From NCBI GenBank assembly GCA_016700135.1, contig CP065004.1, positions 840,001-872,000 of the forward strand: 32,000 nucleotides of DNA, in the 5' to 3' direction. The translations under genes and the position numbers were made by a program. Below, piece by piece: positions 11,508 to 30,322 of the stretch. How positions within the stretch are numbered: position 1 is the first letter of the stretch; each line of letters opens with the position of its first letter. The notes under the pieces were generated by a model. That model was given only the letters and a program-made list of their open reading frames with translations. It did not search any database and was not told where the DNA came from. The DNA is from Candidatus Saccharimonadota bacterium. GTDB taxonomy: Bacteria > Patescibacteriota > Microgenomatia > UBA1406 > GWC2-37-13.

Positions 11508-12443
11508 TCATTCTTTCTCGGTAGGTATCTTCTTTTTAAAACTAATGAGAATAATCGATGTCACCAAAATGATGATCCCGATTATATTTGCCAAACTCAG
11601 TTGCTGCGGTGCGCCGTACGGGTTAAGCGGAGTTACTGCAATCAGGATACTTACGACCGGAAACATCAGCTCGGCAATCGTTGAAATTTTTGCTTCAGTC
11701 GCCTGAAGTCCCTTGTAATACAGATACACCGCAAATGCTCCACCCGTCAGCCCTGCGATGACAATAAATCTCCAGATTTGATCGTAATTGAGATTCATAA
11801 CATTGTATGTTTCTCCCAGGAAAAGCGAAAAGATGTATGCTACCGGTACGGCAAGCAGGAACCGAAGTGCAGATACCGCAGGATACGGCAGTTTATTAAG
11901 GGAGTGTTTGCTGAGGACTGTCCCCGACCCCCATGCAGCAGCTGCCCCTATTGCCAAAAGGAAAACGAGTTCTTTCCCGATAAACTGCAGTTTTACGGGT
12001 TCAAATCCGAAGCTGATCAGGTAACTTCCGAACAATGCACACGCGGCAAGCGCAATAAAGCGTGATGAAATTTTCTCTTTTAAAAAAATTGCGGAAAACA
12101 CAATGACAAAAATCGGCTGAAGTTTTTGCAACAGAATCGGAGTTACAAAGTCAAATTCAGCAAAACTTTTTGCAAGAGCCTCCGTGAAAAGAATGGTCCC
12201 TGCAACGCTGCTGACTACGGTCATCATGAGAAGTATCCCCCATTCTTTCGTCTTCAGCGATTTGATTTTACTGAGATATTTGAAAAAGAATGGACTCAAA
12301 AATAGGAAACCAATCGCATGTTCGATCATGACAATGCTTGCAGGAGGGATAGTAAAGGTAAGCTGAGTACGGAATATCGCATCTATTGCCCAGAGTGATG
12401 CGGCAATCATGATAAATACGGGCGCGATTCGGGATTGAGACAT
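11508..12443 (-). CDS. EamA/DMT-family transporter; candidate riboflavin importer (RibN/ImpX-like) by riboswitch context
   Basis: About 10 TM helices in two EamA-like halves. ATG 12443 (MSQSRIAPVF...) is preferred over TTG 12455. It lies directly downstream of an FMN riboswitch on the same strand. Confidence 0.85.
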   Translation of the reverse strand: MSQSRIAPVFIMIAASLWAIDAIFRTQLTFTIPPASIVMIEHAIGFLFLSPFFFKYLSKIKSLKTKEWGILLMMTVVSSVAGTILFTEALAKSFAEFDFVTPILLQKLQPIFVIVFSAIFLKEKISSRFIALAACALFGSYLISFGFEPVKLQFIGKELVFLLAIGAAAAWGSGTVLSKHSLNKLPYPAVSALRFLLAVPVAYIFSLFLGETYNVMNLNYDQIWRFIVIAGLTGGAFAVYLYYKGLQATEAKISTIAELMFPVVSILIAVTPLNPYGAPQQLSLANIIGIIILVTSIILISFKKKIPTEKE

Positions 12444-12545
12444 AAGAATGTTCAATGAAATTTAATAATGAAGTCCGATCAGGAGATTTTCCACAAAAGA
12501 AGATACTACATAATCTCCAGCCATGGCATAGAGAATGAATAGTTG

Positions 12546-12732
12546 CCTTCTTTCATCCCGATTGTAATCGGGATTGTCACTTTCGTGACATCCGGACTGT
12601 ACCGTCGGCTCCGGAGTTGTCATAAACTCACCGGATCCTGCGTTGATCCGCCGTCTGGCGGGTCGCGGCTCGTGGGCTGTACCACCGATTGGGAATTGTC
12701 TGATTGAAATCGGACTCACCCTACCCTGAAGG
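12546..12732 (-). promoter_or_regulatory. FMN riboswitch (RFN element)
   Basis: The minus strand reads CCTTCAGGGTAGGGTGA[19-nt insert]ATTCCCAATCGGTGGTACAGCCCACGAGCC...CCGCCAGACGGCGG...GGATCCGGTGAGTTTATGACAACTCCGGAGCCGACGGTACAGTCCGGATG[two extra hairpins]AAAGAAGG. It matches the conserved RFN blocks GGGTGAAATTCCC, ACCGGCGGTA, AGCCCGCGAGC, GGTGA..CCGACAGT and AGTCTGGATG. It also has the P1 pairing CCTTC/GAAGG. An extended -10 (TGTATACT) lies at 12742-12749. Confidence 0.85.
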
Positions 12733-12820
12733 AACATCATTAGTATACAGGATAATTGTTCATATGGGATCAACATATCTTGTTTTTGTGTTTAGGTTTC
12801 TGTACTATATGTATATCCCT

Positions 12821-14041
12821 ATGAGGAAACTTCATCTAAACTACAATATTTACGGTGCCTTCTTTGTGTTGGTAATTATGGGCCTGACTGCAGTTACGTA
12901 CCTCACGACGGCCAGTAATCGGGAATCACATACCGTCCAATCACAGGCTGCCGGAACGTGCGGTGCGAACTGTGACAATAAAAGTGTGTGGATCAGTGAT
13001 TGTTTGCGATACAACGGCAGTGACAAAACGGCACAGTGCAATGACTGGTTCAATGCTGAGTGTTCAGCGTGTGGAAATTCCGTCCCTACCACGGCCCCGG
13101 ATACGGGGGGAGGCAATGATACTGGAGACAACACAGTACCGTTTGATCCAACTGCCACAGCAAATGATCCAGCCGTCCAAAATTTGTGCGGGGCAAATCC
13201 CAACGATCCGCGTTGCTGCAGAATCAATGAATGGAAAAATACCAATCTCGGAACAAACTTCAGAGAATGTTCGGGAGGAACAGGAGATAATAATACTCCG
13301 ACTGCCACACCGACAATTATGCCGGGAGGTACAGGAAGTTGTAACAACGGCCAAATACCGAACGGCAGCTGGGCTTGTTTTAGCCGAACCGAGGTGATTC
13401 AGTGTGTGAACGGTTCGTATCAAAATAAAACCAGCTGTACGAGTTGTACCGGTATCAGTGCAAATAAAAGCAGCATTTGTACAGGAGCGGGAAGCTCGCA
13501 ACCTACAAAAACACCATGCGAACAAAACAATCCATCGTATACTGTATGTCCTGCAGCTGGCAACAAATGTATCACCCGCGATGATTGTAACCAGCTTTCA
13601 AAAAATGCTCCTTCAAAAACACCATGCGATCAGGGTAATGCTTCTTACACTATTTGTGCCGTTGCTGGTAATAAATGTATTACCCGTGATGACTGTAATA
13701 CCTTAAGTAGGAATGCAGCTCTTTCTCCTACCCCGACAGTTGTCCAAACCGCAAACCCTGATGCATGCGGCCAGCCAGGAGCAAGCTGCTGCGGTACTGC
13801 TTTCGGAGGATCTGCCTGTGTGACAAACGGATATGAATGTATTGCAGGAAAGTGTCGGGTCGGATACGCGGGGTTTGATGACTCAAGTGTGACGCAAGTT
13901 CAGACTAAATTACTGGAGTGTACAACCGGTTCTTCCGGTGTCCAATGCACCAAGCCTGAAGTCATTACCGTCGATCAGGAGTTAATATTTAACGGATGCT
14001 TTGCGCTCCCCAATAATCAAGGCTTCATGTGCGCTGAATAA
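12821..14041 (+). CDS. Cys-rich secreted/anchored protein with an internal tandem repeat
   Basis: The start was moved to ATG 12821 (MRKLHLNYNIYGAFFVLVIMGLTAV... signal/anchor) because the upstream part of ORF 12704 overlies the riboswitch. Cysteines are numerous throughout. No family recognised. Confidence 0.7.
   Translation: MRKLHLNYNIYGAFFVLVIMGLTAVTYLTTASNRESHTVQSQAAGTCGANCDNKSVWISDCLRYNGSDKTAQCNDWFNAECSACGNSVPTTAPDTGGGNDTGDNTVPFDPTATANDPAVQNLCGANPNDPRCCRINEWKNTNLGTNFRECSGGTGDNNTPTATPTIMPGGTGSCNNGQIPNGSWACFSRTEVIQCVNGSYQNKTSCTSCTGISANKSSICTGAGSSQPTKTPCEQNNPSYTVCPAAGNKCITRDDCNQLSKNAPSKTPCDQGNASYTICAVAGNKCITRDDCNTLSRNAALSPTPTVVQTANPDACGQPGASCCGTAFGGSACVTNGYECIAGKCRVGYAGFDDSSVTQVQTKLLECTTGSSGVQCTKPEVITVDQELIFNGCFALPNNQGFMCAE
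13508..13717 (+). repeat. Tandem 108-bp (36-aa) coding repeat, two diverged copies
   Basis: KTPCEQNNPSYTVCPAAGNKCITRDDCNQLSKNAPS is followed by KTPCDQGNASYTICAVAGNKCITRDDCNTLSRNA. The TGC codons at 13517 and 13625 are 108 nt apart. Confidence 0.8.
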
Positions 14042-14484: not shown

Positions 14485-15249
14485 ATGAAATACAAAATGC
14501 TTGCCCTTGATATCGATGATACTATTGTGACGGAGGCCGGCATGGAAGTCTCACCCGAGGTATATAAAGCGCTTCAAAAGGCATCAGAGAAAGTGACTAT
14601 AACATTTGTCACAGCTCGTGCTATCAATAGATTTCAAGAGTTTCTTGACACCTTAAATCTTCCTAAAGGGTATCATGTGGTAGAAAACGGTGCAAAAGTG
14701 CTTGATCCCCAGGGCAATCTGGAATTTGACCTCTCTCTCCCCCATGAAGAAGTCGAAGAAATACTCAATGCGGCGGAACCTTACTATTTGGAAATGGGTT
14801 TTCTGGTCGACGAATATTGGAAAGATGATATCCTGACAATCGGTCCCGAAAACACCGTGACAGGTGTTTCGTTTACCTGCTCATCCGAAACGCAGGCGCA
14901 GCTTCTTGAAGAAGCCGTACATCAACTCTCCCACGATTACGCACTCTATATCGGTAAACACTGGACCAATCCTGATGAATGGAAAGGCATTCTGGTGTTT
15001 CATAAAGATGCGACAAAAGGGAACGGCATGCGCCATATTCAAGAAAAGCTCGGTATTAAACCCGCAGAAACAATAGCGGTCGGTGACGGTGCCACAGATA
15101 TTCATATGTTTGATGCCGCAGGTGTGAAAGTAGCCATGGGGAATGCGGTTCCTGAGCTAATAAATGCTGCAGATTATGTCGCGCCTGATGTTAAAGAAGA
15201 CGGAATACTTACAGTTCTTGATACGTTTATTTTTGATACCAAGAAATAA
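14485..15249 (+). CDS. HAD-superfamily hydrolase, Cof-like (subfamily IIB)
   Basis: LALDIDDT (DxD nucleophile motif), TARA and GDGATD motifs; ~254 aa. Confidence 0.85.
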   Translation: MKYKMLALDIDDTIVTEAGMEVSPEVYKALQKASEKVTITFVTARAINRFQEFLDTLNLPKGYHVVENGAKVLDPQGNLEFDLSLPHEEVEEILNAAEPYYLEMGFLVDEYWKDDILTIGPENTVTGVSFTCSSETQAQLLEEAVHQLSHDYALYIGKHWTNPDEWKGILVFHKDATKGNGMRHIQEKLGIKPAETIAVGDGATDIHMFDAAGVKVAMGNAVPELINAADYVAPDVKEDGILTVLDTFIFDTKK

Positions 15250-15250
15250 T

Positions 15251-16621
15251 TCAGACCTGCGAAAGATATTGATCGACGTCAAACTTTCTTTTCAAACCGT
15301 TTGCATTCATATATCTGATTTTTCCGTAAATAGAGCGTTCAAACCATGGGCGATCATGGACACCTCCGATCGACCAGGCACAGCCGACATAGCCGTTGGG
15401 ATCTCTCCCGTCAAGCTCGTATTTGTCATTCAAATATACTGCTATTTCCATCGCCTCCTGTGCGGTCTTTGTCCATTCTAGAATTTTTTTTGCCCAGTAC
15501 ATCCGCATATAGCCGTGCATTTTCCCTTTATCGACCATTTCTATCTGTGCCTTATTCCATATCTCGTCATGGGTCTTGCCTTGTTCAAATTCTTTTAACG
15601 TATAGACGTATTCTCTTCTGTCCTTGAGATGTTCGTTCAAACTTTTTTTCGACCAATCCGGAAAGCCACGGTAAGAATCGTATTCTGAATTATAGTTGCA
15701 GTAATTATCCGCGAGCTCTCTTCTGATTATCAGTTCTTCTAAAAATGCTTCCTTGTCCTCATTCGGTGCAATTGATTGTTGTATATTCAGGGATATGTAC
15801 TGTGCTGAGATTTGGCCGAAATGAAGATACGGGGAGAGATTTGACTGTGCATTTAGATTCGGGTTATTGCTTTTTTCGCCGTATCCACGAAGACGCGTTT
15901 CGATAAATTCTTTCATCATATGTTTTGCGGCCTTTTCCCCGGGGTTGAGCCATGTGACAGCTTTTACTTCTCTGTTACACGAGAGCTTATTTGTAACGCC
16001 TTCCCATTCTGTATTGTGAAGCGATATCGAATGAGGTATGTTCTTTCCGACATTCGGAAATGCAGTGAGAAATTGTTTCAACTTTTTCTGAATTTTGGGA
16101 CGTATGGTACGTGCGGCAAACTCCTGTCTGGGAGAGGCTTCCCAAACGGGGACAATATTATGTGCATCAACTTCATAAAAAGGGATAGTCGTGTTTCGAG
16201 CAATGCTTGTTCTCCACTCCCTTCCAATTCTGAGGGGTGAAAAATCAGTCACTAATTCTTTTACATCATATCTGAATGTTAGTTTAGGAATTTCTTCTAT
16301 CGGATCACCGATTTGAAGGATAAACGGGATATAAAGTTTCTTCAGAGAGGTATCAATTTCTTTTAGTCCTTTGAGCATAAAATCATAATGTCTCAATGTT
16401 GCTCCGGGAAAATTCGGAGTAAGTACGAAGAAAACAACAAGAGGCAGATTGTTTTTCTTTGATAGTTCCTGCGCATACAGCAATGCCCAGTTCTCGGACA
16501 CACGCTGATCGCGACTCATCCAGTATGCGATCGCTGAGCCGCTGCTTGTGGTTTGGGTATTGAGCTTTCTGATTCTCTCTTTCTGAATCATATCTATATT
16601 ATAATGGGTTATTACATTCAT
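15251..16621 (-). CDS. phr: Class II CPD photolyase
   Basis: YWMSRDQRVSENWAL, GYMRMYWAKKILEW and DPNGYVGCAWSIGGVHDRPW are class II photolyase hallmarks. An alternative start lies at M11 (16591). Confidence 0.9.
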   Translation of the reverse strand: MNVITHYNIDMIQKERIRKLNTQTTSSGSAIAYWMSRDQRVSENWALLYAQELSKKNNLPLVVFFVLTPNFPGATLRHYDFMLKGLKEIDTSLKKLYIPFILQIGDPIEEIPKLTFRYDVKELVTDFSPLRIGREWRTSIARNTTIPFYEVDAHNIVPVWEASPRQEFAARTIRPKIQKKLKQFLTAFPNVGKNIPHSISLHNTEWEGVTNKLSCNREVKAVTWLNPGEKAAKHMMKEFIETRLRGYGEKSNNPNLNAQSNLSPYLHFGQISAQYISLNIQQSIAPNEDKEAFLEELIIRRELADNYCNYNSEYDSYRGFPDWSKKSLNEHLKDRREYVYTLKEFEQGKTHDEIWNKAQIEMVDKGKMHGYMRMYWAKKILEWTKTAQEAMEIAVYLNDKYELDGRDPNGYVGCAWSIGGVHDRPWFERSIYGKIRYMNANGLKRKFDVDQYLSQV

Positions 16622-16633
16622 TTTCTTAATGTT

Positions 16634-18102
16634 ATGCCCAAAAAAGTAATTATTATCGGTTCCGGTTTTGGTGGCTTGTCGAGTGCTGCGCTTCTTGCGA
16701 AAGCCGGATATGACGTCACCGTTCTTGAAAAAAATAAATCTCCTGGCGGTCGTGCTATGCAGTTTTCAGAAAAAGGATTCACTTTTGATATGGGACCATC
16801 ATGGTATATGATGCCTGAGGTGTTTGATCGATATTTTGCACATTTTGGCAAGACTCCGTCATCATTCTACAAGCTGGTTCACCTTGATCCTCATTATCGC
16901 ATCTTTTTTAGCAAAGATGATGTCCTCGATATGCTTCCAGATAAAGACAAAAACTTTGAAGCATTCGAAAAGATCGAGCCCGGTTCCGTTGAAAAATAAA
17001 ACAATATCTTGAAAAGAGTGAAGAACTGTATGAAATTGCGATGAAGTATTTTGTGTATAAAAATTATGATTCCGTGTTTGATATGTTTGATATGAAGTTT
17101 GCCGGTGTTGCCGCCAAAATGCCGGTGTTCTCTACAATGAATTCATATATTTCCAAGTACGTCACAGATGATAGACTTAAGAAAATTTTGCTCTATACGA
17201 CCGTATTTATCGGCGGTGTCCCTGACAATACTCCAGCTCTTTACACGTTAATGTCTCACATCGACTTCAATGTGGGTGTGTTTTATCCGATGGGTGGAAT
17301 GTACAGTATCGTTCAGGCACTTCAGGATGTGTGTAATGAGCAAAACGTGACGATAAAGCTCGGTACACCTGTTGAGAAGATCAACGTGAAAGCCGGAAAA
17401 GCAGTCTCTGTCACAGCAGGTGGGAAGGAATATGTAGCGGATATTATTCTATCAAATGCAGATATGCCTCATACGGAAATGGCGCTTCTTGATGAAAAAT
17501 ATCAGACTTACCCCAAAAAGTATTGGGAGAAAAAGACAATTGCCCCCTCTGCTTTTATTCTGTACTTAGGTGTAAAAGGAAAAATTAAAAACCTGAAACA
17601 CCATACCCTCTTTTTCACCTATGATTGGGAAAAACATTTTGCTGATATGTACAAAAAGCCGGAGTGGCCTGATGAACCTTCGATGTATATCTGTTGTCCT
17701 TCAAAAACAGATCCGTCTGTTGCACCGATTGGTGATGAGAATCTGTTTATTTTGGTACCGATTGCTCCGGGACTTTCTGACACTCCGGAAATTCGCAGAC
17801 GATATGAAGCGAAAATAATCGATATCTTGGAAGAGACGTTGGATGAATCCATTCAGGATAGATTGATCGTCAAAAAATCTCTCTCAATCAACGACTATAA
17901 ATCTCTCTACAATGCGTATCAGGGAACAGCCCTCGGAATTGCTCCGAACTTCTTTCAAACGGCTTTTTTCAGGCCGAATAATTTCAGTAAGAAGGTAAAA
18001 AATCTGTATTATGTCGGACAGGATACTGTGCCCGGTGTCGGTGTCCCAATGGCACTGATATCTGCTGAGTTAGCAGTTGAACGCATCACAAATGCCGAGT
18101 AA
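16634..18102 (+). pseudogene. crtI: Phytoene desaturase (CrtI family) interrupted by one frameshift at an A5 run
   Basis: MPKKVIIIGSGFGGLSSAALLAKAGYDVTVLEKNKSPGGRA is the FAD fold. Frame 1 ends ...EPGSVEK* at 16997-16999. The -1 frame continues KIKQYLEKSEELYEIAMKYFVYKNY... to ...YYVGQDTVPGVGVPMALISAE. One extra A in the run 16992-16996 would restore a single ORF of ~489 aa. Confidence 0.85.
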
Positions 18103-18902
18103 GCAGGAGATTTTTCGTCAAGGGAGCACAACATATTACTTTTCAAGCATCTTTTTTCCTCCCGATGTCCGAGAAAAAAGTCTTTACGCTCTACGCGTAT
18201 GTCCGTACAGCCGATGATTATGTGGATGCAGTTCCTCAGGATGCCGCAGGTTTTCATCGATTCAAACAAATGACGCTGGATGCTTTGGAGGGCAGAAAAG
18301 TTCCGGATGTTATTATCAGTGAGTTTATTGATTTGGCACGGAAAGAACAGATTAAAAGTGACTGGATTCTTGCTTTTCTCTCTGCTATGGAGCAGGACTT
18401 GACCGTGAAAACATACGAGACATATCAGGATCTTGAAAAATATATGTACGGCTCGGCAGAAGTTGTCGGTCTTGCAATGGCACGTATTCTCAACCTGCCG
18501 GAGAAATCGTTACAAGCCGCACAACTTCAAGGTAAGGCTATGCAGCTTATCAATTTTATAAGAGACATCCGGGAAGATCTTGTATTCGGAAGGGTTTATA
18601 TCCCGCAGGAAGATTTGCAAAAGTTTCATATTACAGAACTGAATGAACACGTTGATCCGGAACAGTTTTCAGCTCTTATTCGATTTGAGACAGAACGGTA
18701 CCTAAGCCTGCAAAAACAAGCTGAGAGCGGATATGCATACATACCCCGTCGGTATAGAATTCCTGTACAGACGGCCTCTGCTATGTATAATTGGACTGCA
18801 AGACAGATTATTCAAAACCCTATGATGATTTTTGAGAAAAAAATTAAACCTCATCCCTTACGAGTGATGAGTACCGTTATGAACTATTTAATAAAAGGAT
18901 GA
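18092..18902 (+). pseudogene. crtB: Phytoene synthase interrupted by one frameshift at an A6 run
   Basis: ATG 18092 overlaps the crtI stop and reads MPSKQEIFRQGSTTYYFSSIFFPPDVREK. The +1 frame (ORF 18165-18902) continues VFTLYAYVRTADDYVD...YMYGSAEVVGLAM...NFIRDIREDL. One A fewer in 18174-18179 restores the frame. Confidence 0.85.
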
Positions 18903-25325: not shown

Positions 25326-25411
25326 CGGAGGAGGCGGGATTCGAACCCGCGAGTCCATTGCTGGACGCAGACTTTCCAGGTCTGTGGAATAAACCGCTAT
25401 CCGACTCCTCC
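25326..25411 (-). tRNA. tRNA-Ser (anticodon GGA)
   Basis: GGAGGAGTCGGATAGCGGTTTATTCCACAGACCTGGAAAGTCTGCGTCCAGCAATGGACTCGCGGGTTCGAATCCCGCCTCCTCCG. It has a 7-bp acceptor stem, the CAGAC/GTCTG anticodon stem with loop CTGGAAA, a long variable arm (GTCCA-GCAA-TGGAC) and the GCGGG/CCCGC T stem. No CCA is encoded. Confidence 0.9.
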
Positions 25412-25575: not shown

Positions 25576-26151
25576 ATGGAACAAGATTTATTGACGCCGC
25601 TAAAAAATTTTTACCGTAAAAACAGGCGTTTGCCGTCATACTCGGAAATGCTCAAAATATTCAATGTTGCTTCCAAAAGAACTATCTATGAATATGTCCA
25701 GCAGCTTATTGACGAAGGGTTTATCAAACGGGTAAATAAAAAACTTTCACCGACAAAACGTTTTTTCGCTTTGCCGGTCCTCGGTATGATTCAGGCGGGA
25801 TTTCCGATTCTTGCACAACAAAGCAGAAGCTACCTCACGCTTGATGAATATTTTATTGAGAAACCTGATAATTCTTTTTTACTTAAAGTACACGGTGATT
25901 CGATGATCAATGCCGGGATATTTGAAGGAGATCTCGTCGTAATCGAGCAGAAAGGCGATTTCCGGGCAGGAGATATCGTACTTGCCGAAATTGACAATGA
26001 GTGGACCTTAAAGATTCTGAAAAAAGAAAAAGGGAAAACATTTCTCGAAGCTGCCAATCCGATGTATCCGCCTTTTTATCCGAAACGGGAATTGAAGATC
26101 CATGGAATAGTACGGGCCGTTATGAGAAAACTTGGCGGGATGGCTAACTAA
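25576..26151 (+). CDS. lexA: LexA repressor (S24 peptidase)
   Basis: N-terminal winged-helix domain. GDSMINAGI carries the catalytic Ser and EWTLKILKK the Lys region. Confidence 0.9.
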   Translation: MEQDLLTPLKNFYRKNRRLPSYSEMLKIFNVASKRTIYEYVQQLIDEGFIKRVNKKLSPTKRFFALPVLGMIQAGFPILAQQSRSYLTLDEYFIEKPDNSFLLKVHGDSMINAGIFEGDLVVIEQKGDFRAGDIVLAEIDNEWTLKILKKEKGKTFLEAANPMYPPFYPKRELKIHGIVRAVMRKLGGMAN

Positions 26152-29607: not shown

Positions 29608-30322
29608 GGCTCTAGACTAGCAGAGTAGTGCTAAACTAGAGGTATGGTTTGTAACAATAGGCCGATATCAAAATACAAGAGAAAAAAGATACTATGGTGT
29701 TTTGCACACGATCTGAGTGCTACACAGACCTCTGGTATTTTGGGTCTCAACCGCAATACAGTCAACAAATATTACAATAATATTCGTCAACTCATATATC
29801 ATCACCAAGTGCACCAGATGCAACGATATGTTGGTGGTGAGATAGAAATTGATGAATCATACTTTGGACCTCGAAGGATGAGAGGCAAGTCAAGTAAAAG
29901 AGGTCGTGGGACGTCATTTAAGCAGGTAGTATTTGGGATATATGAGCGTCAAGGACGTGTATTTACTCGTATCATTCCAAACTGTAAAAGAAGAACGCTA
30001 CATGCTGTTATGAAGGGAAAGATTGACTTGAACAGTACTGTATATTCAGATTCGTGGAGCGGATACAACGGACTTGTTGATGTCGGGTATGACAAACATT
30101 TGAGAATCAATCACAAGAAAAATGAGTTCTCAAATACAAAAGGGGTCCATATCAATGGCATAGAGTCATTCTGGTCCTTTTGTAAAAGACGTCTCGTTAA
30201 GTTCAATGGTGTAAAGAAAAACTTTCCATTACACTTGAAAGAGTGTGAATGGAGATGGAGCAAATCCCCATCGATCCTTTACAATGAACTATTACAAATT
30301 GTTAATGTGCTAGTCTAGAGCC
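29608..30322 (+). mobile_element. Intact IS1595-family (ISXO2-like) insertion sequence, 715 bp
   Basis: Perfect 15-bp terminal inverted repeats: GGCTCTAGACTAGCA at 29608-29622 and its complement at 30308-30322. It has a single transposase ORF and is inserted inside a serine recombinase gene. Confidence 0.9.
29644..30318 (+). CDS. IS1595-family DDE transposase (ISXO2-like)
   Basis: N-terminal HTH, then IEIDESYFGPRR..RGRGTSFKQVVFGIYERQGRV..TVYSDSWSGYNGL..HLRINHKKNEF..HINGIESFWSFCKRRL..LHLKECEWRW, the typical ISXO2-like DDE domain. Confidence 0.9.
   Translation: MVCNNRPISKYKRKKILWCFAHDLSATQTSGILGLNRNTVNKYYNNIRQLIYHHQVHQMQRYVGGEIEIDESYFGPRRMRGKSSKRGRGTSFKQVVFGIYERQGRVFTRIIPNCKRRTLHAVMKGKIDLNSTVYSDSWSGYNGLVDVGYDKHLRINHKKNEFSNTKGVHINGIESFWSFCKRRLVKFNGVKKNFPLHLKECEWRWSKSPSILYNELLQIVNVLV

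Follow-up and report, generated by a model that had tools for sequence, protein, structure and literature searches.

Does the leader of a transporter gene that routine annotation leaves blank hold a working riboswitch, and if so, why is it missed? The question arises in a 32,000-nucleotide stretch of contig CP065004.1 (positions 840,001 to 872,000; the window), where an EamA/DMT transporter gene on the minus strand is preceded by a structured leader. Flavin mononucleotide (FMN) riboswitches are among the best-studied riboswitch classes and have been pursued as an antibiotic target. A sequence-only reading of the window had proposed an FMN riboswitch at this position, with all RFN blocks on the minus strand and without annotation, and our analysis bears out both points. 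We conclude, mainly from comparative sequence evidence and with a probability of roughly 0.82, that the leader of the transporter gene is a functional FMN riboswitch and that it represents an architectural subclass found in Microgenomates-group Patescibacteria (the candidate phyla radiation, CPR) and in Dojkabacteria. The features of the locus, numbered as positions in the window, are as follows.

12742-12749, minus strand: extended -10 element TGTATACT, read from the sequence; a TATACT or TATAAT box recurs in relatives.
12542-12735, minus strand, 194 nt: predicted FMN riboswitch aptamer, P1-P6 plus four extra helical elements, from an RF00050 match and an all-canonical hand-drawn structure.
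12728-12735, minus strand: 5' strand of P1, GUUCCUUC (helices 1-2, 93-99% paired).
12698-12715, minus strand: hairpin GUCCGAUUUCAAUCAGAC in T-loop L2, between T-loop positions 3 and 4 (UGA, hairpin, AAUU), from covariation of helix 4.
12640-12666, minus strand: extended, variable P4 stem-loop, in which helices 7-8 covary.
12619-12627, minus strand: mini-hairpin GUUUAUGAC in T-loop L5 (helix 10), at the site equivalent to the L2 insert (UGA, helix, AACU).
12575-12590, minus strand: hairpin 1 (hp1) of junction strand J6/1, UG-UCAC-GAAA-GUGA-CA (helix 12), starting at the U equivalent to bulged U100.
12555-12574, minus strand: hairpin 2 (hp2) of J6/1, AUCCCGAU-UACA-AUCGGGAU (helix 13), directly abutting hp1.
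12551-12554, minus strand: remainder of J6/1, GAAA, preceding the 3' strand of P1.
12542-12550, minus strand: 3' strand of P1, GAAGG-C-AAC, pairing with GUUCCUUC.
12514-12534, minus strand: hairpin UCUCUAUGCCAUGGCUGGAGA between the 3' strand of P1 and its competitor, from the RNAalifold consensus, with some compensatory pairs.
12495-12504, minus strand: candidate anti-P1 element AUCUUCUUUU, complementary to GAAAGAAGG of the 3' strand, from the free fold and from relatives.
12479-12487, minus strand: candidate anti-P1 element for the 5' strand and J1/2 (anti-P1a), AUCUCCUGA, containing CUCCUGA and complementary to UUCAGGG, from covariation with J1/2.
12454-12470, minus strand: AU-rich leader segment with an AUUAUUAA-type motif and no Shine-Dalgarno (SD) sequence, recurring in relatives.
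11508-12443, minus strand: EamA/DMT transporter gene (Pfam EamA), putative riboflavin importer, 311 amino acids from ATG 12443.

A permissive scan of 12400-12850 returned a match to RF00050 at 12575-12737(-), with 60.5 bits, an E-value of 2.3e-13 and model positions 1-138 of 138 covered. When the whole window was scanned at the Rfam gathering threshold, a single tRNA was reported and the FMN aptamer was not. Since the gathering score of RF00050 is 66.2 bits, routine annotation misses the aptamer. The low score was caused by penalized inserts and a mis-assigned 3' strand of P1, not by mismatches in the core. In the alignment, penalties fell on L2 (22 nt where the model has 4), on L5 (12 nt where it has 3) and on extra bases in P4. 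The model also cannot span the ~35 extra nucleotides that lie before the 3' strand of P1, and it pairs GAAAGUGA instead, leaving three of eight pairs non-canonical. The same pattern extends to relatives: 12 of the 14 aptamers that carry the extra J6/1 hairpins fall below the cut-off (those 12 at 40.9-63.4 bits), while canonical relatives all pass it (12 of 12, 71-114 bits).

The P1 helix drawn in the sequence-only reading proved to be the correct one, and the covariance-model P1 was wrong. Strand GUUCCUUC pairs with GAAGG-C-AAC in eight of eight canonical pairs, and the helix is retained among relatives with compensatory changes in its outer pairs. GAAA together with the 3' strand equals GAAAGAAGGCAAC of canonical relatives such as L011, which ends in the same GGAUGAAAGAAGGCAAC as the window. 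In the hand-drawn structure every aptamer helix of the window consists of canonical pairs. Among relatives, pairing reaches 93-100% in P1, P3, P5 and P6, and all of these but P3 show compensatory changes; the predicted fold of the leader is also more stable than that of shuffled controls (z = -3.6). Two formal marks of the class are absent, namely a score at the Rfam gathering level and a short J6/1 of about 6-7 nt; both absences are due to the J6/1 module. Judged by sequence, structure, covariation and gene context, 12735-12542(-), slightly redrawn from the earlier extent, belongs among the FMN riboswitches.

The two open reading frames that overlap this region (12462-12776 minus and the 5' end of 12704 plus) had been set aside as artefacts, and we came to the same conclusion, in the latter case for its first ~117 nt, because ATG 12821 is the most likely start of the divergent plus-strand gene, whose N-terminus would then resemble a signal anchor, and because aptamer length among relatives varies from 161 to 297 nt in steps that are not multiples of three. 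The extended -10 element that had been noted upstream is indeed present at 12749-12742. Window and relatives alike have a -10 box 7-10 nt before P1 (TATACT or TATAAT, preceded by TG in the window), which would place the start of the transcript at about the first base of P1. A generic promoter scan was silent at TGTATACT because there is no match to a -35 element.

The feature that sets this aptamer apart lies in J6/1. In the window this strand is 43 nt long and includes two hairpins (12590-12555), while 15 other CPR aptamers read GGAUGAAAGAAGG or similar and are canonical here. We found the two-hairpin module at 14 distinct loci (the window, L002, L003, L008, L012, L015, L018, L039, L079, L082, L085, L086, L089 and L092), in each case between GGAUG and GAAAGAAGG. 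These loci are Roizmanbacteria-like or belong to Woesebacteria and Dojkabacteria/WS6, and they represent two gene contexts. When each insert was folded alone, one constant plan emerged, in which A99 is followed by hp1 closed by UG..CA, by hp2 closed by A..U, and then by GAAA and P1, with the hairpins abutting. The hairpin sequences differ between loci and the inserts vary from about 30 to 80 nt, but pairing is retained. A pattern scan of metagenomes yielded six loci, two of them false positives in which a canonical aptamer is followed by a terminator and an SD sequence. Three other Microgenomates-group rib operons have a canonical J6/1, so that the distribution of the module is patchy.

Covariation was counted on the 14 variants, aligned to a covariance model built on the window's own structure; this model was used because MAFFT left the covarying stems of J6/1 out of register. 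Helix 12 (hp1) showed compensatory changes at four of four pairs and was 100% paired, and helix 13 (hp2) showed them at seven of eight pairs and was 94.4% paired. The closing pairs of hp1 covary as well (most loci have UG..CA, but L039 and L092 have UA..UA and L012 has CG..CG), and the closing A-U of hp2 is kept in 13 of 14 variants. Across the entire structure, 95.2% of cells were paired and 35 pairs had double-sided changes, against 36-51% and 8-14 pairs in slid controls, and none of 500 shuffles matched the observed pairing and covariation values. The two hairpins between GGAUG and P1 had been described earlier as unusual extras of this aptamer. They are present, at 12590-12575 and 12574-12555, and they are unusual, but they are not a peculiarity of this locus, since they form a conserved, covarying module. 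The insert begins and ends with U, which is all that underlies an apparent second GGAUG before GAAAGAAGG; we rejected the idea that this marks a duplicated J6/1 or a target-site duplication.

Where, then, does the module sit relative to the ligand pocket? The U of GGAUG we take to be U100, as presumably the sole U of the B. subtilis sequence GGAUGGG. J6/1 of the F. nucleatum and B. subtilis aptamers comprises residues 98-103, with A99 and U100 inside GGAUG; U100 bulges out into the solvent, and FMN is not contacted by residues 101-103 (Vicens et al. 2011, PMC3201879). As aligned, the module occupies the place of the solvent-flipped U100 and would turn a six-helix junction into an eight-helix one, leaving A99 untouched. 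With the insertion at a solvent-pointing base and with GAAA resuming the canonical strand, an eight-helix junction with an intact pocket appears sterically plausible. The module is probably a structural or folding-kinetics addition rather than a change of ligand. As a separate observation, four loci (L002, L085, L089 and L092) have a long form of hp1 that keeps an internal loop, 5'-(G)UAAU opposite 5'-(C)AAA(C), between covarying flanking stems, and this loop may be a site of tertiary contact or protein binding.

The other inserts are of a more familiar kind. T-loops L2 and L5 of the window fit the consensus (YGNRA)NY (preprint 10.1101/2022.12.26.521914), and L6 reads UACAGU, the docking of the T-loops on L6 and L3 being presumed. 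The L2 helix (helix 4) had double-sided changes in six of six pairs and was 90.9% paired, and it also occurs in canonical relatives that pass the Rfam threshold; the L5 mini-hairpin had them in two of three pairs and was 78% paired. That a helix can optionally be inserted at this T-loop position has been described before (Barrick & Breaker 2007, PMC2258182), and the L2 and L5 inserts are thus real but already known in kind. The hairpin reported in the GGGUGA/AUUCCC loop therefore stands as an element, with its length corrected from 19 to 18 nt, and loses its status as unusual. All three hairpins listed in the sequence-only reading exist, but that list was incomplete, having missed the fourth insert in L5 (12627-12619) and the extended P4 (12666-12640). 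Among relatives, a Microgenomates rib-operon aptamer with canonical J6/1 (L096:1066-1105) has a hairpin, GGUCUUCUCUAGGAGACC, inside loop L6. A T-loop receptor of the internal-loop type has never been seen in the L2-L6 interaction according to the 2022 preprint, and L096 may be an exception to that rule.

We next consider whether the aptamer would still recognize FMN. The junction bases of the window equal the FMN consensus at GGG/AGGG (J1/2), CGG (J2/3), CGA (J3/4), GA (J4/5), CCGAC and GGAUG. In F. nucleatum numbering, the residues that contact FMN are G10, G11, G32, A48, G62, G84, A85 and A99 (PMC6298564, PMC3201879), and in rare variants that have lost FMN binding a contact G (G10, G11, G32, G62 or G84) is replaced by A (Atilho et al. 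2019, PMC6298564). These G-to-A changes of variant subtypes 1 and 2 are absent from the window, where the corresponding positions are G. The window deviates from the consensus in GGGU for GGGC and in AUCGG for ACCGG, and both deviations are common to canonical relatives scoring 89-99 bits. In L079, assigned to the Microgenomates group by the relatives of its RibE, a module-bearing aptamer precedes a full ribE-ribH-ribB-ribA-ribD operon, and this placement speaks for continued FMN sensing by the variant. These comparisons make a switch to another ligand unlikely.

The gene under presumed control encodes a protein with two EamA domains (PF00892, 1.8e-30, its sole Pfam match), and it starts 98 nt from the end of the aptamer on the same strand. 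NCBIfam gave it sub-threshold generic matches only (carboxylate/amino acid/amine transporter; YddG). We collected 478 homologues, the nearest of them in Roizmanbacteria, Woesebacteria, Dojkabacteria, Uhrbacteria and other Patescibacteria, and FMN aptamers were found upstream of relatives at 24 further loci. Six homologues of ~420-428 amino acids (P0090, P0097, P0103, P0104, P0115 and P0118) have a C-terminal riboflavin kinase domain (PF01687), with P0103 confirmed as EamA plus Flavokinase (1.1e-35); such a fusion would trap imported riboflavin as FMN. In L086 the EamA gene overlaps a ribE-like (Lum_binding) gene, the two forming one operon behind a variant aptamer. Taken together, the aptamers, the kinase fusions and the ribE operon make riboflavin import the best-supported function, and the transporter is, by this comparative evidence, probably a riboflavin importer, as had been proposed from the window alone. 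Distant proteobacterial EamA homologues (23-28% identical) had no FMN aptamer. The 32-kb window, too short a stretch to bear out the vitamin-scavenging module proposed earlier, encodes no riboflavin genes, and related Microgenomates carry full rib operons. In one relative, L001 (CAZDDM010000002.1), the transporter protein is identical to that of the window and the leader differs by several single bases, among them 12665 (C in the window, A in L001; P4) and 12529 (U in the window, C in L001; hairpin). That record is labelled 'uncultured Gammaproteobacteria bacterium', and since its gene relatives are Roizmanbacteria and other Patescibacteria, it is probably mislabelled.

Downstream of P1 the order of elements is conserved: a hairpin, AUCUUCUUUU, CUCCUGA, an AU-rich tract and the AUG. 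The unconstrained fold of 12735-12432 has a free energy of -101.2 kcal/mol, compared with -89.6 kcal/mol when P1 is enforced. In the free fold the probability of P1 is 0, that of the anti-P1 helix on the 3' strand 0.75-1.0 and that of the J1/2 pairing by anti-P1a 0.57, and every peripheral aptamer helix is retained, including hp1 and hp2. As modelled, P1 is given up unless it is trapped by ligand binding together with tertiary contacts and co-transcriptional timing. The alternative helix between AUCUUCUUUU and the 3' strand of P1 plus GAAA is predicted in 13 loci and appears in the RNAalifold consensus of the closest relatives. A pairing of CUUCUUUU with the 3' strand of P1 had been suggested before; the pairing holds, and its coordinates become 12502-12495 in place of 12491-12498. 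At least 14 loci have the anti-P1a element, at -32 to -45 nt relative to the AUG, and its sequence changes in step with that of J1/2, as UCAGGG-CCCUGA in most, UCGGGG-CCCCGA in L011 and GGGGCA-UGCCCC in L012. In L015 and L018 the duplex of CAGGGUAG with CUGCCCUG reaches -19 kcal/mol (z = -6.5).

These data support the conformational step of an OFF switch, in modelling at least, and the output step would follow from it as an extrapolation. When FMN is scarce, the alternative fold would form, P1 would be replaced and the transporter would be made. When FMN is abundant, its binding during transcription would trap P1 and free the two anti-P1 segments, and expression would fall. The output would most likely be occlusion of the AU-rich initiation region or the start codon by the freed segment, which is predicted to form a hairpin over the start codon in L007, L008, L009, L079, L087 and L092; alternatively, the exposed leader may be lost in a Rho- or RNase-dependent manner. 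We found no intrinsic terminator in the leader of the window, as the sequence-only reading had also stated, and a terminator-like hairpin with a U run occurs in only some relatives (L014, L016, L044 and L092). Nor is there an obvious SD sequestor. Among the genes of the window, 0 of 25 have an SD motif at normal spacing, and we ruled out SD sequestration as the output on that ground; the missing sequestor reflects an organism without SD sequences rather than a peculiarity of this leader. The output would accordingly be neither intrinsic termination nor SD sequestration.

Three further observations concern the same leaders. An AU-rich AUUAUUAAUUA-like motif stands 15-40 nt before the transporter start in the window (12454-12470) and in L003, L006, L007, L009, L012 and L015, and it may be a ribosome landing site in mRNAs that lack an SD sequence. 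In L085 (1400-1500) and L089 (620-720), ~100 nt are added between platform and start, with a second CCUGAAG copy and an CCGAUUAC-GAUCG-like hairpin, and the leader is thus remodelled. Finally, the 3' strand of hp2 (12555-12563, AUCGGGAU) could pair with codons 3-5 of the window's own gene (12428-12437, AAUCCCGA, +7) in a 7-bp duplex of -10.9 kcal/mol (z = -3.0), yet a test of cognate against non-cognate pairs over the 14 loci showed this to be absent from the 13 other module loci. We rejected it as a mechanism, and the complementarity in the window is probably due to chance.

Several observations tell against a functional riboswitch of this kind and have to be set beside the evidence above. 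The covariation was counted on an alignment fitted to the model structure, and the ligand-contact residues were mapped by consensus alignment and literature rather than on a structure of this RNA. The window's anti-P1a duplex taken alone is non-significant (z = -1.8). Accessibility of the window's start codon was equal in both states (0.46 and 0.46), with the same small AUG hairpin, in a test with a built-in bias, since the blocking of bases cannot lower accessibility but only raise it. Reference genomes gave 49 orthologous transporter loci, of which about 30 (L004, L005, L013, L017, L019-L027, L030-L038, L040-L043 and L045-L049) lack an FMN aptamer in the 1.5 kb upstream, so that riboswitch control is far from universal and the substrate assignment draws on context. 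Canonical relatives, finally, work without the J6/1 module, which may lack a function of its own. If so, the J6/1 hairpins would be neutral, tolerated insertions like those in L2 and L5, and the riboswitch would work exactly as a canonical one does. The widely varying sequences and lengths of the inserts are what such neutrality would produce, and so are the patchiness of the module across the transporter tree and the close relatives with canonical J6/1 in both gene contexts (L006, L007, L009, L011, L016, L088, L090, L093, L094 and L096). Long non-conserved stem-loops are moreover tolerated by riboswitches at specific sites (PMC2258182). Against this stands the constancy of the architecture, two abutting hairpins with UG..CA and A..U closings followed by GAAA, across all three groups and both gene contexts, together with the UAAU/AAA internal loop kept between covarying stems in the long form. 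It may also be argued that 35-80 nt placed before the 3' strand of P1 must delay P1 closure, and that in a switch driven by kinetics such a delay would probably not be neutral. We regard neutrality as a real possibility that nevertheless falls short of an even chance. At the other end lies a joint proposal, which we put forward tentatively and would not bet on as a whole: that the module defines an undescribed, functionally distinct eight-helix FMN subclass confined to Patescibacteria; that by replacing U100 it alters folding or ligand-binding kinetics or docks on P1, P6 or a partner; that it acts with the dual anti-P1 platform on SD-independent translation; and that the EamA protein is the founder of a CPR-wide family of riboflavin importers, at times fused to riboflavin kinase.

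Three other explanations were weighed. If the RNA were a specificity variant that responds to riboflavin, a flavin breakdown product or another metabolite, then its sub-threshold score, the module beside the pocket, the clade-specific changes (GGGC to GGGU, ACCGG to AUCGG) and a downstream gene from the exporter-rich EamA family with weak YddG-exporter similarity would all find a place. The score, however, is accounted for by inserts and the mis-assigned P1, both clade changes are shared with well-scoring canonical relatives, the contact G positions equal the FMN consensus in a way those of the published variants (PMC6298564) do not, and the same aptamer type precedes the rib operon of L079, a classical FMN-repressed target; we consider such a variant quite improbable. 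It is hardly more probable that the transporter exports a flavin or other metabolite, or carries another substrate, with the riboswitch possibly acting as an ON switch. EamA/DMT proteins are often exporters, the NCBIfam matches, to a carboxylate/amino acid/amine transporter and to YddG, are sub-threshold, most orthologues are without a riboswitch, and the start region of the window is not more occluded in the modelled P1 state. But uptake followed by phosphorylation is what the six kinase fusions suggest, the operon with ribE points the same way, the same aptamer type with a like platform stands before biosynthetic rib genes that must be FMN-repressed, and importers under FMN riboswitches have precedent in RibN, ImpX, RibU and RibM (PMC4418817). 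Least credible of all is the idea that the CCGAUU..AAUCGG hairpins came into the riboswitch as copies of a mobile or repeated palindrome, or of a protein or DNA operator site. It is true that in the window CCGAUU/AAUCGG-like arms are common to hp2 and the L2 hairpin, as had been pointed out, and the complementarity of hp2 to codons 3-5 could be read in the same light. Yet the motif CCGATTNNAATCGG is not enriched in the window (5 matches when up to 2 mismatches are allowed, where 1.7 +/- 1.4 would be expected; at 0-1 mismatch the two aptamer copies only), the two hairpins are unrelated in sequence among relatives, and the coding complementarity is missing from the other 13 loci. The shared core is there, but it is neither conserved among relatives nor a dispersed repeat, and it is probably a coincidence. 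An FMN-sensing riboswitch before a riboflavin importer remains our preferred reading.

The surroundings of the locus add a number of observations. Several ATGs are preceded at 7-14 nt by a TATAAT-like box (14485, 9553 and 11380 are examples), which, together with the lack of SD motifs, suggests widespread leaderless or SD-independent initiation. The window encodes flavoproteins (a class II photolyase and CrtI), a carotenoid cluster, HflX and a Cof-type HAD phosphatase. The last, a Cof-type HAD-IIB phosphatase at 14485-15249 (+), has a sub-threshold match to a YcsE-related phosphatase of riboflavin metabolism, and several relatives (L090, L091) keep it in synteny with hflX and the EamA gene; it could be linked to flavin metabolism. 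The carotenoid cluster comprises CrtB (18165-18902), a polyprenyl synthase, a UbiA prenyltransferase and Caroten_synth, adjoins the class II photolyase and is unusual for a Patescibacteria-like genome. Its phytoene desaturase (CrtI/CrtD-type) is split into 16553-16999 (the N-terminal FAD-binding part) and 17041-18102 (+) (profile positions 133-478), which could reflect a frameshift, a pseudogene or an assembly error. Three further features were recorded.

25326-25411, minus strand: tRNA with a long variable arm, anticodon region GGA, probably Ser.
25576-26151, plus strand: LexA-like S24 peptidase.
29644-30318, plus strand: IS1595-family transposase.

In the searchable literature, with figures and several key papers outside the search, we found no description of an insertion in J6/1 or of FMN riboswitches in the CPR. 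A 2019 compilation of 11,603 FMN aptamers mentions a P3 extension as the sole one (PMC6298564). The novelty lies in the conserved module of J6/1 and in a transporter family that spans the CPR; the riboswitch class itself is known. A conserved helical module in a strand of the ligand-binding junction would mean that the core has room for more structural variation than the textbook picture of six helices allows, and it makes a natural eight-helix version available for structural comparison. Because 12 of the 14 module aptamers score below threshold, riboflavin regulation is systematically under-annotated in Patescibacteria, a gap that a covariance model trained on the present sequences would close. 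The probable assignment of riboflavin as substrate to a widespread family labelled only 'DMT family transporter' helps to account for how these reduced and mostly uncultured bacteria obtain vitamins, and the locus offers a test case for riboswitch regulation in organisms without SD sequences.

Compared with the canonical RF00050 riboswitches of F. nucleatum impX and B. subtilis ribD/ypaA, the window RNA has the same P1-P6 helices, junction sequences, and L2/L5 T-loops with L6/L3 receptors, it stands likewise in the 5' leader of a gene for riboflavin transport or biosynthesis, and its P1 competes in the same manner with an alternative helix. It differs in the two abutting hairpins that replace U100 and would give an eight-helix junction, in the helix inserts in both T-loops and in its sub-gathering score, and also in having two anti-P1 elements, one directed into J1/2, with no terminator or SD sequence to sequester. 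The L2 and L5 inserts interrupt G-N-R at the very position described for T-loop helix insertions in FMN and cobalamin riboswitches (PMC2258182), but those insertions cover the loops capping P2, P3 and P5, whereas J6/1 is a junction strand that lines the ligand pocket. Like the FMN specificity variants (PMC6298564), the window RNA is a low-scoring, atypical FMN-like aptamer of a sort often found before transporters; in the variants, however, a contact G is mutated and the six-helix form kept, while in the window type the contacts are kept and the architecture is changed, and this type also precedes a full rib operon.

The transporter can be compared with two known importers. RibN is said to belong to the EamA/DMT superfamily, and to that extent the earlier grouping of such DMT carriers into RibN and ImpX types holds by report. 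The other half of that grouping finds no support in the literature consulted, where ImpX is described as a distant homologue of eukaryotic RFT2 from Proteobacteria, Firmicutes and Fusobacteria, with DMT/EamA never mentioned (Gutierrez-Preciado et al. 2015, PMC4418817). In F. nucleatum and Desulfitobacterium, ImpX is monocistronic and FMN-riboswitch-controlled, and riboflavin uptake was established by complementation (PMC4418817). It thus resembles the window gene as a lone transporter gene behind an FMN riboswitch, and differs from it in family, going by the description in PMC4418817. RibN, a riboflavin importer of alpha- and gamma-Proteobacteria with an FMN riboswitch in the alpha-Proteobacteria (PMC4418817), is reported only from Proteobacteria, whereas the family of the window protein is centred on Patescibacteria, its only proteobacterial matches being those at 23-28% identity without an FMN aptamer. 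What the two would share is a two-domain EamA-type carrier, reportedly so for RibN, placed behind an FMN riboswitch and presumed to supply the cell with riboflavin.

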